A DNA stretch of 62,629 bases, counting the filler, from Pseudobdellovibrionaceae bacterium (GTDB lineage: Bacteria; Bdellovibrionota; Bdellovibrionia; Bdellovibrionales; UBA1609): NCBI GenBank assembly GCA_030591685.1. It is 5 parts of 5 records of this genome, joined end to end, with 100 filler letters (N's around TTAATTAATTAA, not from the genome) between each part and the next. Parts side by side here need not be neighbours in the genome. Positions count along the whole stretch, not along the records: positions 15,106 to 22,645 come from JAUVAX010000073.1; positions 22,746 to 41,672 come from JAUVAX010000042.1; 3 more parts are not named here. One strand, 5' to 3'. The position numbers are program-made. Below are positions 21,001 to 27,000 of this stretch, in pieces (the first letter of the stretch is position 1; every line of letters starts with the position of its first letter).

Positions 21001-24000
21001 GATAATTCTATAAAAAAATAAACTTATAATTTTAATTTAAGTAAAAAACAACTGTGGTGATCAGTGAGCATGCCTCTGACATTGCTAGGTACAAATAAAA
21101 AACTCTGCTTAAAGTCGTATCTTTAAGCAGAGTTTATAAGGCAGGAAGTTTTGGTGTTTAAATTAAATTAATATCGACGTCTTCTGTAATCGGTATTTTG
21201 GTAATTGCTCTGAGTACCGCCTCGGGCCCCGGTTGAGTAAGTATTGTAACTTGACCTTGAGTCATAGACGTTTCTGTTTGATAAAAACCGATCATCATAA
21301 TAGCTGCCGCCATTTCTTGAATCATAGTAAGAGCTACCATTGTTGTTTCGGTACTGAGTGCTGCCGTTTCTTGAGCCATAGTATGGATCACTGTTGCTGC
21401 CTCTATACTGAGTATTACGATTTCTATCATTGTACTGAGAGTTGCGATTTCTATCATTGTACTGAGAGTTGCGATTTCTAGAGTCGTAGTAAGGGTCGCG
21501 ACCTCTGTCGCTGTACTGAGAGTTGCGATTTCTATCATTTGTACGGTTACGCAAGCTGTCTCCTCTTGATCGATCGCCACTAAATCTACCTAGGTCACGG
21601 CCAAACTGTGTTCTAAGCCCTGAGTCTGAAATACTATGTGCATTGATCCCGCTTAAATTAAGATCATTCATGACTTGCTCTGCTGTTCTCATGCGAACGC
21701 CCGGGTATTTGTAGTAAGCCGCCATCCCACACGAGTTGGAGTCATATTTGTAACTCTTTTTATAAAAATTAAGTGGTCCAAATGATTTTCGTGAAAACCC
21801 ATCAAGTTGCCCTGCTGTTATGTCAGCTTGGCAATAAGCATTCAGTGAGCTATTAAATAAAAGGTTATAGTTCTTTTTATTTTGCGCTGAAACTCCAGCT
21901 CCATTGGCCATTTTAAAAGTGTCCTCATCTATAAAGTCCTCAAGGCCACTTTGTGCATTGCTGTAGTTTTCTGCTGGGTTCGAGTAAAAGTCTTTGATTG
22001 TATTTTTGATTCTATCTTTATTATCAAGAGTGATGTAATCGGTTTGTAGGTCTCTTATGATTTTAGCGATAGATTTTTCATAATCATCATCTAAATCAGT
22101 TTCGGCACCGTCTTCGATATCTATATCAAAAGCACCACTTAAAAGGTCTTCTAATCGATCCATACGGGTGTCTCTGCTTTGTCCACCTTTTGCCCATGAC
22201 CTTAAGTGTTTAGTGTACACCTTGGCGGCTTTGTCCGAACAGTCATCATCGTCGTCAGAGTCACAAAGTTCAGGATGGCTCTCATCAAGGTAAGCCTTCA
22301 TTAGGTCCATAAAGCACTCTTTACGGTCACCTTTGTCAACTTTTTCACCGTCAAGGTCAAGTTTGCAGGTTTTCATTTTAGCCAACTCTTCGCTGTCTTC
22401 TTTATGTATTTTTTTGGCCTGGTTAATTTTGTCTTTAATGTTTTTCTTAATCAGGTCTACAATCTTAGTGAGTGAGTCCGTGGTCTCAATAATTTTATCA
22501 CTTACTGTGACCTGGTTGAGTAGTGTACACGCTTCGCCATCACAAGAGTCAGCTTCAGTTTCTCTATCTATAGATATAGAAACCTTATTGCCGTCCTTTT
22601 GGCTCACCTTAACTGTGAACTCCTCGCGCTCGCCGTTGACTTTATNNNNNNNNNNNNNNNNNNNNNNNNNNNNNNNNNNNNNNNNNNNNTTAATTAATTA
22701 ANNNNNNNNNNNNNNNNNNNNNNNNNNNNNNNNNNNNNNNNNNNNGGGTTTTCTAAAATATTTCTTTGTATGACCGTTGGGGTGTGACAGTTGTAATATC
22801 CAAGCCCAATGTTTGAATTAAAAATTTTATTTTTAGAAGCCACCTCTTTAGCCACCGACAGAAATTCGACTTCAGAAAGCCCCTCTTTTAAGTCCAATAC
22901 ACTTTTAATGCGAATTTTTGAGGGCACGGCACTTTGAATTAAATCATCTAGGGTTTTAGAGCCCACCGCCTCAAGCATTGAGTTGATTTCAGTAGGGCTG
23001 GGCCCTATATGACGTTCTACAAAGGGTGAATATTTCACTTTAAAAGCTCCTCAAAAGAAGTAAGTCTATTTGGGCAAAAAAGTACCAAATTTAGGGCTAA
23101 TGAGACAAGTAAAACCTTTGATGAGCCATTGCACTTTAGGGGCTAATAAGAGAGGTACTTATGGGGGAGCAGATAAAGGTTAAAGATGGGGGGGGGAAAG
23201 CTTACCCCCGTACACTTCTAATACGGGGGTTGTTTTGCCTAAAAAATAGGCTTAAATTAAGGGCCGTTGTCTTATTTCTTTTTAGCGATTTTTTTGGTCG
23301 TCTTTTTTTTGACCTTCTTTTTTACAGAAGCTTTTTTCTTGGTGGCTTTTTTAGTGGCCTTTTTCTTGCTAGCTTTTTTCTTGGTCGTTTTTTTCTTGAG
23401 TCTTTTTTTGTGCTCAGTGGCCTTCTTTTTTAACATGGCAAGTCGTTTTTTAGCGTCCTTTTGAACCGAGCTGATTTGCTTGGCTACCTTTGAAACCTCT
23501 CGATCAACTTGGGTCTGAATGGTATTGATGGACTTTAAAACATCATTAAACTGCTTTTCAAGTTTATTGAGCCTTTTCTTTGTATTTGGGGTGAGGTGAG
23601 ATTGAAAGTCATACTTAGAAATATCCTGACCGAGTTTGTTGAGTTCTGTTTTGAGTGAATCAATATTTTTGATTTTTTTGAAATCACTTTTTATTTTGTC
23701 CCAGTTTAATTTAGATTGTGGCATTTGGTAAACCTCTCTTTTAGATGTGTTGGTGACCTTTTACGAATGTGTGTTTAATATTAAAAGTTGTCAAGTCCAC
23801 TTTTTGAAAGTAGTTATTATTTTATGAATCATTACACTTTAAACCCTCCAAAGGTGTGCTTAACCCTTTTAGCTGTTAAAAGGGCGGTCACTCTAGAGTC
23901 AATTTTACCGAACCAGTTTTGGATCGGTGGCGAATTGTCAGTTAAAGAGGGCCAGTTTTATTTATCGGATGTTTTTTACAAAACTAAACTGGTTGATGTA

Positions 24001-27000
24001 AATAATTTAGATTTTAATATAAAACCAAATAAAGCTTATTTTGCAGCGGTACGGGTCAAAAAAAATGACGTTATTGTTACTCCTTCCGGGTTTAAGCTAA
24101 AGTCCGTGGGTGAGATTAAAATTTTAGGTCAACGCCAGCACTTTGAGGGTGATTTTTATAACCCCAAGTGCCAACCAGAGCTTGTTAAAAAGTGGTCTGA
24201 GTTTTTATGGGAGGTGGAGAGTTTTTTTGTCACCCAGGGGTTCTTCAGAGCCCAAACCCCCACTTTAGTGTCCTGCCCGGGCCCAGAGCCCACAATTGAC
24301 ACCTTTCAAACGCAGTTTAACTATGGCCAGAGGGGGACTCTTTGCCATCTCCCCTCAAGCCCTGAGATTCACTTAAAAAAAATGTTGGCCTTTGGCGTGC
24401 ACCAAGTGTTTGAGGTGAAGCCGAGCTTTAGAAATAACGAAATCACCCCGTGGCATGAGCCAGAGTTTAACATGCTCGAATGGTACCGAGCCTTTGGGGG
24501 GTTTGAGGATCTCTCTGATGATTTAGAGGGCCTCATCAACCATTTGATTCAAAAATTTTCTCCATGTGATGGCCATCAAACTATCCAGTCTTTTTCTCTA
24601 GAAGAGCTGTTTTCAAAAAATTGTGAGTTTTCGCTTCAACCCACAACCACCTTAGAGGAGCTTGTAACCCTTTGTGGTCAATTAAATATAGAGGTGGCCA
24701 ATGACGATGAGTTTAACGATGTTTTTTTTCGCATTATGTTTGATAAAATAGAACCCTTTTTAAGCACTATAAAAGCCCCGGTTGTGATTTATAATTATCC
24801 ACCAAGCTTGGCGGCACTTTCTAAATTAGATACCAAGGGTTGGGCCTCAAGGTTTGAGCTTTACTGGAAGGGGGTTGAGCTGGCCAACGCTTTTAACGAG
24901 CTTGTGGATGAAAAAGAACAAGAGAAGAGGTTGATCTTAGATAATTTAGAAAAATTAAAACTAAACAAGCCAGTGTCGCCCATAGATTTAGAGTTTCTTC
25001 AAGCGTTGCGCTCGGGGCTGCCCCCTACAGTAGGCATTGCCTTAGGCTTAGAGAGACTATTTGCTGTTATACATAATTTATCCTCAATATCTGAATTTAA
25101 TTTATTTTCTTGGAGTTGGCGCATTAATAAATGAACTCATGGGTGAGAGGGGCAAACCTAAATAATGAGTCAAAGGCTCAAAGCTGCAGCTTAATTAAGT
25201 TAGCTTAAAAAACCCTTATCACGAGGGTCAAAAGTGTTACTGCCCAGTATGTCCCTTACATCTGTACGAAAGTTCAAACCAGATTTGTGCTGCTGTGGGA
25301 GTTGGTCGGTGAGCTCTGTGATTAAAAATTGAAAAACTCTTTTTTGCCAATCTCGCTCTTTACCATTGCATTGATCCATTGAAACAAACTGATCTACAGA
25401 GTAAGCCTTGCCCTCTACAGTCATTAAAACTAAAAACTGAAATCCGCTTTCAGTTTTAATGATGGCTGTTTTTACAGTACTTTTTAACGGGAGTGTTTTT
25501 AGGGTTTGGGCCATCCATTTGTGAGCAAATTCATTGACGTCATTTCTGGCTTCAAAATTTATACATTCAAAAGACATAAGCTCTGGCCCCCTTAGTTGTA
25601 ACCTTTCTTTTAGATCGACATAATTAGGGGCTGTCTTAATGTGATAAATAAAAACTAGTCAGAGGGCTTACTTTGAAAAAGGCTGAGACGAATTAATCTG
25701 TGATTTTATTAATGGCTTCTTTAAGTTCTTTACCAACTTTAAAAAAAGGTAAGCGCTTTTCTTTGACCTTAATGACTTCGCCGGTTCTTGGGTTGCGGCC
25801 TTTGTAGGCGTCGTAGTCGCGGTTAACAAAGGATCCAAAACCTCGAATTTCTATTCGGTCATCTCTCATAAGTGCTTCAACAAGTGAGTCAAATATTGTG
25901 TTTACAACGGTTTCGGCTTTAACTCGGGTGACCCCTGTTTTTTCGGCAATCATATTAATTAGGTCGGCTTTAGTCATATAAATACCCTTTGTGGTAATAG
26001 TCGTAACGTGCTGAAACTACTCACATTGTAGCCAGGTCTAAGGCTTCGAGCTAGCGTTATTTTATAAAAATCATAAACTTCTGGCCCGTAATAAGGTCTA
26101 TGTGCGGGAGGCTTTGTATTTACCTGTTGAGACTAATACTTTGCGGCATGCGTCAATGGTCTGAGTGACCATATTTTGAAGGTCAAAGAGGTTGGTCACT
26201 TTAGTTTGGGCTTGCTCGCCGATATCTGAGGCTTGAATTTGTCCGCTAAAAATTTTGATCATTAAATAAGCCAGAGTATTCTGATCTGCCGGCCGGATTA
26301 AAAACCCGTCCTTACTATCTTCAATAATGTTAGCAATGGGGCTGACCTCAGAGCCAATGACGACCTTTTTTTGAGCCATGGCCTCAAGCATATTAGATTC
26401 AAAACCTGTTGTACGAGAGCTGAGGTTTATGAAAATATCAGCGAGCGAAACATACTCGGGTATTTCTATATTTTTAATGGCTCCGGTAAAAATCACCTTG
26501 CTCCCTAAGGCGAGGCTGAGCATTTCAAATTCAATTTGTTTTTTAAGGGGTCCATTGCCAACAATAATGAGTCGAGAGTTGGGCTTTTTTATGGCGACTT
26601 TAGTAAAAGCTCCGAGTACGTTTTTAATCTCTTCTAGTTCGGTCATATCTGAAAAAATCACAGCAACATGAGCATTAATTGGGATTTTTAAATGCTCCTG
26701 GAGCTCATGGGACCCTTTTCTTTGAGAAAAGTCACCCAACTCAATACCATAGGGGATAATATAGGTTTTAAGCTCGGGGTAGAGGTAGTATCTCTCAAGT
26801 AAAATTCTTTGCTGAGGACTTGTAACAAAAACGCCATCGGCTGACTTTAAAAGTTTTCGATCCCGAGAATAGTAGGTGGTTATAAATTTATATAAAATCG
26901 CAACGCCGGTTCGTATAAGCCCCCCAAGGGACTCTTGAGCCATGCCCATGATGGCGAAAAGTTGTGACATTTGCGTGGCATCAGCATCAAGACTAAGCGC

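Follow-up and report, generated by a model that had tools for sequence, protein, structure and literature searches.

A predicted natural EpmA-type EF-P ligase with a degenerate OB domain related to the LysRS anticodon-binding domain

We suggest that a gene in a 62,629-nucleotide stretch of Pseudobdellovibrionaceae DNA (the window, five parts of five records joined end to end, filler included) encodes a two-domain EF-P beta-lysine ligase. Its catalytic core falls in the EpmA clade; its activity we infer from the sequence and from the gene content of the genome. The N-terminal extension is supported as an OB domain homologous to the anticodon-binding domain of lysyl-tRNA synthetase (LysRS), with the anticodon-reading residues gone. 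The gene and its parts are arranged as follows.

23824..25134, + strand: predicted two-domain EpmA-clade EF-P beta-lysine ligase; intact ORF, 436 aa
23824..24171, + strand: degenerate N-terminal OB domain and linker, residues 1-116, supported as derived from the LysRS anticodon-binding domain
24172..25134, + strand: class II catalytic core of EpmA type (TIGR00462 best hit, GenX Z 38.7, EpmA clade)
24430..24456, + strand: motif-2 loop with R203, E206 and H211 (alignment to the 3A5Z chain, column counts)
24493..24495, + strand: F224, LysRS-type aromatic and putative docking residue (co-occurrence with the OB domain)
25039..25041, + strand: A406, beta-lysine gate, corresponding to A298 in E. coli and to a Gly in LysRS (alignment to the 3A5Z chain, column counts)

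An alternative in-frame TTG start at 23788 would give 448 aa. A scan for promoters and terminators returned chance level only. Pfam places PF00152 at residues 120-428 of the ligase at 23824..25134, and the core spans residues ~117-430. The annotation is corrected here because Pfam calls two-domain EpmA proteins single-domain. An artefact, such as read-through or a mis-called start, was considered and rejected because the N-terminal extension is conserved over four phyla.

Identity of the catalytic core

In a tree with 215 EpmA and 35 LysRS rows the core lies inside the EpmA clade with support 100, and IQ-TREE on a subset gives the same placement. TIGR00462 is the best NCBIfam match, and the protein stays below the cut-offs of both curated EpmA models (262/286.9 bits for TIGR00462 and 231/264 bits). 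The TIGR00462 cut-off is passed by five domain-bearing relatives of other lineages and by L086, but not by the relative L103. LysRS models score the protein with 138-160 bits, their cut-offs being 428-468 (NCBIfam: 160/468).

The motif-2 residues R203, E206 and H211 are the equivalents of E. coli R100, E103 and H108, and the EF-P recognition residues are present, with R343 corresponding to E. coli R235. In E. coli EpmA, E103 and H108 are needed for EF-P charging, according to the excerpted text of PMC3950694. The E103 equivalent is retained in 60 of 69 domain-bearing cores, this one included. The column of the beta-lysine gate, A298 in E. coli (bioRxiv 10.64898/2026.07.07.736966), is Ala in all 69 domain-bearing cores and Gly in all 35 LysRS. 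Thus the EpmA-type core proposed in the survey's finding is borne out by the clade support, the Ala gate and the EF-P contact residues.

Also the three partner genes which it had listed, lysS, an EF-P with the PGKG loop and a lysine aminomutase, are all found, on other contigs. The separate lysS (contig C36) is complete, efp (C47) encodes a KPGKG loop, and the aminomutase (C58) passes the KamA-family cut-off, scoring best as AblA/KamA type (407 bits; EpmB 244/369). Outside Bdellovibrionota, efp adjoins 7 of 29 domain-bearing loci.

The OB domain and its anticodon-reading face

The AF2 model of the protein (65-row alignment) has a mean pLDDT of 90.9, with residues 52-61 below 50. Its structural match to E. 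coli GenX covers residues 106-433 (Z 38.7, 317 aligned, 28% identity) and that to LysRS residues 1-435 (Z ~34, ~413 aligned, 21-23% identity), which reproduces with matching numbers the earlier report of a core-only match to GenX and a full-length match to LysRS. The N-domain of L103, folded alone, reaches pLDDT 89.6. The best matches of this domain-only model are LysRS, over the whole length (Z 9.3 and 8.7), followed by AsnRS (6.9) and other OB folds (at most 6.7), and every Foldseek hit listed for it is a LysRS. A LysRS-free profile of 33 Bdellovibrionales N-domains gives LysRS as its top eight PDB hits (E 0.002-0.009). Hence the LysRS-like nature of the extension, earlier argued from the whole protein, is now shown for the domain alone by the L103 fold and the LysRS-free profile.

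A wider N-domain profile ranks ribosomal S1 above LysRS, and profile-profile comparison of the barrel does not single out LysRS: hhalign with the barrel alone gives LysRS 94%, DUF5666 95% and BOF 89% (controls chosen for matching). With a family profile built without the protein, its residues 1-116 score 9.4 bits, which is above chance (maximum of 1000 shuffles, 5.1). The LysRS N-domain profile gives the protein no score; 8 of 74 single EpmA domains exceed the shuffle maximum of 4.3 with it, and most are within noise. Pfam and NCBIfam have no match on the N-domain of the protein, and none of 29 relatives' domains reaches the Pfam cut-off, with two faint PF01336 hits (E 0.008 and 0.02). Divergence within the domain is very high (column identity 15-17%), and 81-97% of rows retain the Gly, Gly-Asp and linker positions of structural importance. 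The protein is among the more divergent of the family, and its strand 4 can be aligned in more than one register.

The anticodon readers of LysRS are R, F, Q and E (human R136, F144, Q155 and E195; PMC11878792). They are retained in 33, 35, 35 and 32 of 35 LysRS, respectively, and in 7, 2, 4 and 3 of 74 EpmA domains, 60 of which have none. The window protein has 0/4; it retains the strand-1 Gly36, and the GK turn is deleted. The loss of this turn extends across phyla, and in a later domain set it is gapped in 114/114. A Gly-to-Asp spacing of 18 is seen in 34 of 35 LysRS; Bdellovibrionales and Myxococcota mostly have 13-14, the two Patescibacteria 14 and 16, and the Acidobacteriota 13, 21 and 21. 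The turn deletion is therefore not uniform, and where shared it could be convergent. Mean barrel charge is -0.9 in the EpmA domain family versus +1.8 in LysRS, the barrel of the window protein being at +4, and no position is conserved on the former anticodon-binding face of the EpmA domains. Since the reading residues and the loop are gone, the domain is anticodon-binding by descent only: the earlier label stands for its origin and falls for its function as a reading domain.

On the core, an aromatic at column 224 is found in 62 of 69 sequences with the domain (7 lack it), in 2 of 141 without it, and in 34 of 35 LysRS. Over nine independent pairs the column separates 8 to 0, the top of 353 column tests (next, 3.7), but it was picked post hoc, and a median p of 0.008 in the sign test would not hold up after correction for 353 tests. 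G398 and P401 also trend with the domain, and in independent pairs they are not significant (p 0.25). Comparison of the EF-Ps from 17 domain-bearing and 7 domain-less genomes gave no convincing discriminating column. A complex prediction with the N-domain alignment and EF-P scored 0.13, the mark being 0.32, and is weighed neither for nor against binding.

Distribution, history and possible role of the domain

OB-bearing EpmA occurs in four phyla, Bdellovibrionota, Myxococcota (including cultured Sorangium and Polyangium), Acidobacteriota and Patescibacteria, in a sampling that left out Spirochaetota, Planctomycetota, Aquificota, Chloroflexota and Chlamydiota. The domain is present on 69 of the 215 EpmA cores treed and, within the Bdellovibrionales clade, on 37 of its 47 rows; five forms are shrunken. 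The iterative profile that set these labels contained one LysRS (L212), which was relabelled for the tree. The earlier count of 56 among 68 homologues with at least 370 aa is reproduced for the first 68, but the two-domain form is not the Bdellovibrionales trait it was taken for, as the domain occurs in four phyla. Its high divergence and frequent loss also fit decay.

Cores with the domain turn up at scattered points in the EpmA tree, early branches included, with 17 changes of state, at least nine of them forced. A single loss is rejected (p 5e-62), as is a single domain-bearing clade, that is, a single gain (p 4e-5); the backbone has poor resolution, and topology by itself does not distinguish numerous losses from numerous gains. 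In 0 of 12 cases does the LysRS of the same genome rank as best match. The early-branching L160, and also L015, keep a LysRS-like segment before the barrel, covered by the structural match. No split OB gene was found near domain-less epmA in the five mixed groups, and these are therefore true losses. Thus, on the choice between retention and regain, left open in the survey's finding, the balance is now clearly towards retention and repeated losses, given the scatter, the rejected single-loss and single-clade trees, the own LysRS never ranking first, and the covariation of F224.

Hence, we consider it probable, judging from sequence, that the domain was inherited from LysRS, disarmed early, docked as a buttress and repeatedly lost, on an enzyme of EpmA function. 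The enzyme would activate beta-lysine with ATP and load it onto the PGKG-loop lysine of EF-P, as EpmA does; sequence and genome content point to this. The OB domain would descend from the LysRS anticodon-binding domain via the duplication that founded EpmA. Its anticodon-reading face was presumably erased early, in a common ancestor of the two-domain forms, which might have stopped a beta-lysine-specific enzyme from mischarging tRNA-Lys, and the barrel core, N-terminal helix and linker would have stayed. Covariation and the LysRS architecture suggest that the domain may pack on the core around the F224 patch, where it would brace the structure or the dimer. Now optional, it would have been deleted independently many times, with the E. 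coli form as an end point. Two-domain EpmA is likely a living halfway stage from a tRNA synthetase to a protein-modifying enzyme.

Could the domain have been repurposed, its OB face now aiding substrate capture through contact with EF-P (at domains II/III), with the ribosome or with some other partner? EF-P is a tRNA mimic, the domain persists through most of the Bdellovibrionales clade, and its R..FL..W..YP start is strongly conserved in Bdellovibrionales. We regard this as unlikely, however, as the former binding face has no conserved position, the EF-Ps of domain-bearing and domain-less genomes are not convincingly told apart by any column, and in the E. coli complex, as the excerpted text of PMC3950694 describes it, EF-P is tilted by ~60 degrees with domain III off the position of the anticodon domain. 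It is rather improbable that the domain is a functionless vestige, drifting until cleanly deleted: the low column identity, the shrunken forms and the forced state changes would fit, but the structural positions are kept, the domain alone folds confidently, and the core aromatic is kept only alongside it.

A single loss followed by several regains, through recombination with lysS or fusion with unrelated OB proteins, would suit the patchy distribution, the similarity of the barrel to DUF5666 and BOF as much as to LysRS, and the horizontal movement of EpmA (excerpted text of PMC11388002). Yet every regain would have to arrive at one and the same position, linker and loop deletion and restore the core aromatic, and the ranking of the own LysRS and the pre-barrel segments of L160 and L015 speak against it; we hold it to be very improbable. 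Hardly credible is a natural dual ligase which still binds tRNA-Lys and also makes beta-lysyl-tRNA. The LysRS-like domain arrangement and the net basic barrel of the window protein agree with it, as does the residual tRNA charging of E. coli EpmA, restored by a grafted domain; such an enzyme, however, is expected to be severely toxic (both bioRxiv 10.64898/2026.07.07.736966), the anticodon readers and the loop are absent, the family mean charge is negative, and the genome has a complete lysS. In a bolder reading, which we think quite improbable, the OB domain is an active binding module with a new target, holding tRNA regardless of sequence or giving the enzyme a further hold on EF-P, and the ligase of predatory and myxobacterial lineages can charge tRNA with beta-lysine at a low rate that the cell tolerates; if true, a beta-amino acid would have a natural way into translation.

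Relation to known enzymes

EpmA is the standard case of a tRNA synthetase that became a protein ligase through loss of its tRNA-binding domain. The natural two-domain forms give a probable order of these events, with the readers erased first and the whole domain deleted later, many times. Selection against beta-lysyl-tRNA has been speculated to drive the domain loss (bioRxiv 10.64898/2026.07.07.736966), and this hypothesis becomes testable in proteins of cultured myxobacteria. The naturally evolved OB-EpmA interface is also a resource for engineering beta-amino-acid synthetases. EpmA itself is known; the two-domain form with an erased anticodon face is new relative to the literature searched, in which no description of a two-domain EpmA was found.

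EpmA is described as a catalytic domain only, without an anticodon-binding domain (PMC2821294, PMC6544042 and the excerpted text of PMC3950694). The window protein is classed as a variant of EpmA, not as canonical, because of its LysRS-derived N-terminal OB domain. With EpmA (YjeA/PoxA/GenX; PDB 3A5Y, 3A5Z, 3G1Z; TIGR00462) it shares the core fold, the Ala gate, the clade, the equivalents of E103, H108, R235, E244 and R303, and a genome with a PGKG EF-P and an aminomutase. It differs from EpmA in the OB domain, some 105-115 aa long, in retaining the GxPP stretch and the aromatic that LysRS has at 224, and in Thr as the H52 equivalent; it also scores under the curated cut-offs and is encoded beside neither efp nor epmB. 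Class II LysRS (LysS/LysU; TIGR00499) resembles it in domain order and relative placement, in the OB fold with preceding helices, in the linker remnant and in the aromatic at 224. However, in contrast to LysRS, it lacks the readers R, F, Q and E and the GK turn, and has Ala for the gate Gly and Glu for Gly at the E103 position. The engineered chEpmA, a LysRS anticodon domain on E. coli EpmA (bioRxiv 10.64898/2026.07.07.736966), likewise joins an OB domain and an EpmA core in one chain, but the chimera reads the anticodon and charges tRNA-Lys, whereas the natural form, with its reading face erased, is predicted not to.

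The ligase gene and its EpmA-type core

23824-25134, + strand: predicted EpmA-type EF-P beta-lysine ligase, intact ORF, 436 aa, contig C10

An in-frame TTG at 23788 is a possible alternative start and would lengthen the protein by 12 residues. The class II synthetase core spans residues ~117-430, and the top NCBIfam model, EpmA TIGR00462 (262 bits, cut-off 286.9), is far ahead of those of lysyl-tRNA synthetase, LysRS (138-160 bits, cut-offs 428-468). Alignment to the 3A5Z chain places A406 at the A298 gate of E. coli EpmA (GenX), which selects beta-lysine (bioRxiv 10.64898/2026.07.07.736966). 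Ala occupies the gate in 69/69 cores bearing the N-terminal OB domain and in 139/141 that lack it; in LysRS the residue is Gly (35/35). By the same alignment E206, H211 and R343 correspond to E. coli E103, H108 and R235, required for EF-P charging according to passages of PMC3950694; the E103 position is Gly in 35/35 LysRS. A tree built from 250 cores sets the 215 EpmA rows apart from the rest by a branch whose support is 100. The core is that of EpmA, and LysRS identity is excluded.

Gene order around epmA (window 22746-28778) is kept across Bdellovibrionales. Among 43 loci compared, gcvP is near epmA in 24, an IHF/HU gene in 23, a glycosyltransferase gene in 17 and a small Lys-rich ORF (23272-23724) in 16; the 125-aa ORF at 25200-25577 is matched in none. 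The efp gene adjoins domain-bearing epmA in 0/33 Bdellovibrionales loci and in 7/29 loci of other phyla. Three epmA matches (G034:C12, G035:C43, G016:C1) are split in two pieces or contain an internal stop, possibly owing to insertions or frame breaks.

The survey's finding of lysS, an EF-P with a PGKG loop and a lysine aminomutase in the genome (G000) holds. All three, the EF-P with its loop reading KPGKG and the aminomutase belonging to the KamA family, lie away from the epmA locus, as does one tRNA-Lys gene.

G000:C58:688-1941: lysine aminomutase L003, long form; AblA/KamA model best (407 bits), EpmB weak (244)
G000:C47:90791-91357: EF-P L285, loop flanks differing from the Bdellovibrionales consensus

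In this EF-P, Tyr replaces Val before KPGKG and Ser-Ile replaces Gln-Phe after it; the Ile variant also occurs in genomes G015 and G023. The aminomutase is AblA/KamA-like and the clostridial KamA product is (S)-beta-lysine (bioRxiv 10.64898/2026.07.07.736966), so the Bdellovibrionales EF-P tag could have either stereochemistry. An aminomutase is detected in 33/41 Bdellovibrionales genomes; in G005, G010, G027 and G038 (97-99% complete, with epmA) none was found with the query used. In predators beta-lysine might be supplied by prey.

Two other features of the window are recorded here.

17677-18675: long histone-like Lys/Ala-rich tail, then a fused GroES-like C-terminus
21168-22607, - strand: 479-aa protein with C-terminal tandem Asn/Arg/Tyr-rich repeats

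A 12-base palindrome in four copies (window 15050, 22690, 41717, 58120) is more likely joiner sequence than biology, since the 22690 copy lies within an N run at a contig join.

The N-terminal OB domain

With the AlphaFold model (pLDDT 90.9 from 65 rows; residues 52-61 below 50) the E. coli GenX match is limited to the catalytic part (residues 106-433, Z 38.7) and the LysRS match spans nearly the whole protein (residues 1-435, ~413 residues, Z ~34), in agreement with the survey. The core alone could drive such full-length superposition, so the OB domain was examined in isolation. A LysRS-free profile of 33 Bdellovibrionales N-domains has only LysRS among its top 8 PDB matches (E 0.002-0.009). 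Strand 4 of the window protein falls in one register with MAFFT and in another by comparison with a close sister sequence, so the N-domain of its relative L103 was folded instead (pLDDT 89.6, 137 rows), giving helices followed by a five-strand barrel. Against 48,161 chains LysRS is best (Z 9.3 and 8.7 over 119-124 residues), followed by AsnRS (Z 6.9) and other OB folds (Z at most 6.7), and every Foldseek match listed is LysRS. The window N-domain belongs to this family, scoring 9.4 bits against a profile built without it (maximum of 1000 shuffles, 5.1).

The barrel alone is not LysRS-specific: DUF5666 and BOF profiles match it as well, and ribosomal S1 ranks first for a broader N-domain profile. 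The LysRS link thus rests on position and on the segments flanking the barrel. Searching 1.84 billion representatives with the N-domain profile gave 134 matches, of which 41 were scanned; the single N-terminal ones are EpmA or EpmA fragments, and the multi-match proteins scanned are mostly OB-repeat proteins. Pfam at cut-off annotates 0/29 such N-domains. As modelled, the extension is the OB domain of LysRS.

Human LysRS reads U35 and U36 with R136, F144, Q155 and E195, according to passages of PMC11878792. Transferred through the profile alignment and counted in a joint alignment, these residues are kept in 33, 35, 35 and 32 of 35 LysRS and in 7, 2, 4 and 3 of 74 EpmA domains. Sixty of the 74 retain none, no domain retains more than two, and the window protein has 0/4. 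Structural positions survive (strand-1 Gly in 70/74, Gly-Asp in 60/74 and 64/74). The hairpin with the GK turn is shortened. From Gly to Asp the spacing in LysRS is 18 (34/35); most Bdellovibrionales and Myxococcota domains have 13-14 and the Patescibacteria 14 and 16, but the Acidobacteriota have 13, 21 and 21. A later Sorangium-like set, one related group, agrees: all 114 of 114 have a gap at the turn, and 107 have a spacing of 14. Judged from these alignments, the domain is disarmed for anticodon reading. The source genome's LysRS (L001, G000:C36:1705-3192) has His at a conserved anticodon-loop Glu (Glu in 32/35).

Distribution and history of the domain

A core counted as domain-bearing when an iterated profile scored its upstream frame at 8.5 bits or more (the maximum over 585 shuffles was 6.5); that profile contained one LysRS, relabelled later.

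OB domain in treed EpmA sequences. These are samples (best 80 of at least 600 matches; Myxococcota, top 30 of 44 over cut-off; Bdellovibrionota, 30 of 32), and EpmA is also known from several phyla outside them.
Bdellovibrionales set: 34 with, 1 shrunken, 9 without
Other Bdellovibrionota sample: 6/27, 3 of those 6 inside the Bdellovibrionales clade
Myxococcota: 24 with, 4 shrunken, 11 without
Acidobacteriota: 3/9
Patescibacteria: 2/12
Pseudomonadota: 0/52
Desulfobacterota: 0/20
Verrucomicrobiota: 0/11
Marinisomatota: 0/1

Two-domain EpmA is widespread beyond Bdellovibrionales. The survey rightly described the long form as common (at least 370 aa in 56/68 first homologues) and the named close homologues as Bdellovibrionales. 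Cultured Sorangium, Polyangium and Minicystis also have long EpmA (recorded Pfam, PF00152 only), and 114/120 proteins of the Sorangium-like set exceed the domain threshold. Shrunken OB remnants occur in Myxococcota EpmA L151, L161, L169, L177, L052 and L157, all lacking the core aromatic; by sequence they look like late stages of loss.

The survey had left retention versus regain unresolved. Domain-bearing cores are spread over many lineages, including the early-branching L160, L280 and L283, and the tree requires 17 domain-state changes, of which branches with good support impose no fewer than 9; a 64-row IQ-TREE subset agrees. A single loss (p 5e-62) and a single domain-bearing clade (p 4e-5) are both rejected, which leaves many losses or many gains. 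We favour losses, hence retention, because the domain occupies an equivalent position in the LysRS outgroup, the EpmA domains have the loop deletion in common, in 0/12 pairs with a rank is the EpmA domain closest to the LysRS of its own genome, and residue 224 tracks the domain. An aromatic stands at this position in 62/69 domain-bearing cores, 2/141 domain-less cores and 34/35 LysRS. In nine independent pairs eight change in the same direction and none oppositely. Of 353 columns tested, column 224, picked after the fact, scores highest (8.0, the second reaching 3.7), with several runners-up at 390-401. It is aromatic in 120/120 of the Sorangium-like set; four short homologues of the window protein, two labelled partial, are exceptions to the pairing. 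Under repeated regain the ancestral aromatic would have re-evolved each time. Split OB genes adjoining domain-less epmA were sought in the five mixed groups and none found.

Proposed role and known systems

Alongside the observed fold, LysRS homology, reader loss, distribution and covariation, we suggest that the two-domain enzyme beta-lysylates EF-P, that its anticodon face disappeared early, plausibly owing to the toxicity that an enzyme both using beta-lysine and reading tRNA-Lys would have, and that the remaining domain stays docked on the catalytic core. The preprint expects toxicity for its chimera of E. coli EpmA with a LysRS anticodon domain, and speculates the same for EpmA history (bioRxiv 10.64898/2026.07.07.736966). 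The domain most likely has a structural role. It could plausibly buttress a dimer, since the two subunits of human LysRS form an interface between the anticodon domain of one and the catalytic domain of the other (PMC11878792). A new use in binding EF-P is less likely: in the E. coli complex domain III of EF-P is directed away from the OB position (PMC3950694), and the former anticodon-binding face shows no conservation. The domain may also be a neutral vestige.

As the survey stated, EpmA is described as being without the anticodon domain in PMC3950694 and in bioRxiv 10.64898/2026.07.07.736966; PMC2821294 says the same, and PMC6544042 handles EpmA as single-domain. No natural two-domain EpmA was found in the literature searched, with subscription papers and the preprint supplement outside it: none appears in passages of PMC9437257, PMC12856214, PMC11388002 and PMC13602936, and PMC5388404 and PMC10810186 do not name EpmA. 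The two-domain form overturns the standard view of the family as single-domain and opens a published evolutionary hypothesis to testing. Compared with canonical EpmA, the window protein belongs to the same clade and is presumed to act as an EF-P ligase too, but is not single-domain; despite its LysRS-type OB domain, it is not a LysRS.
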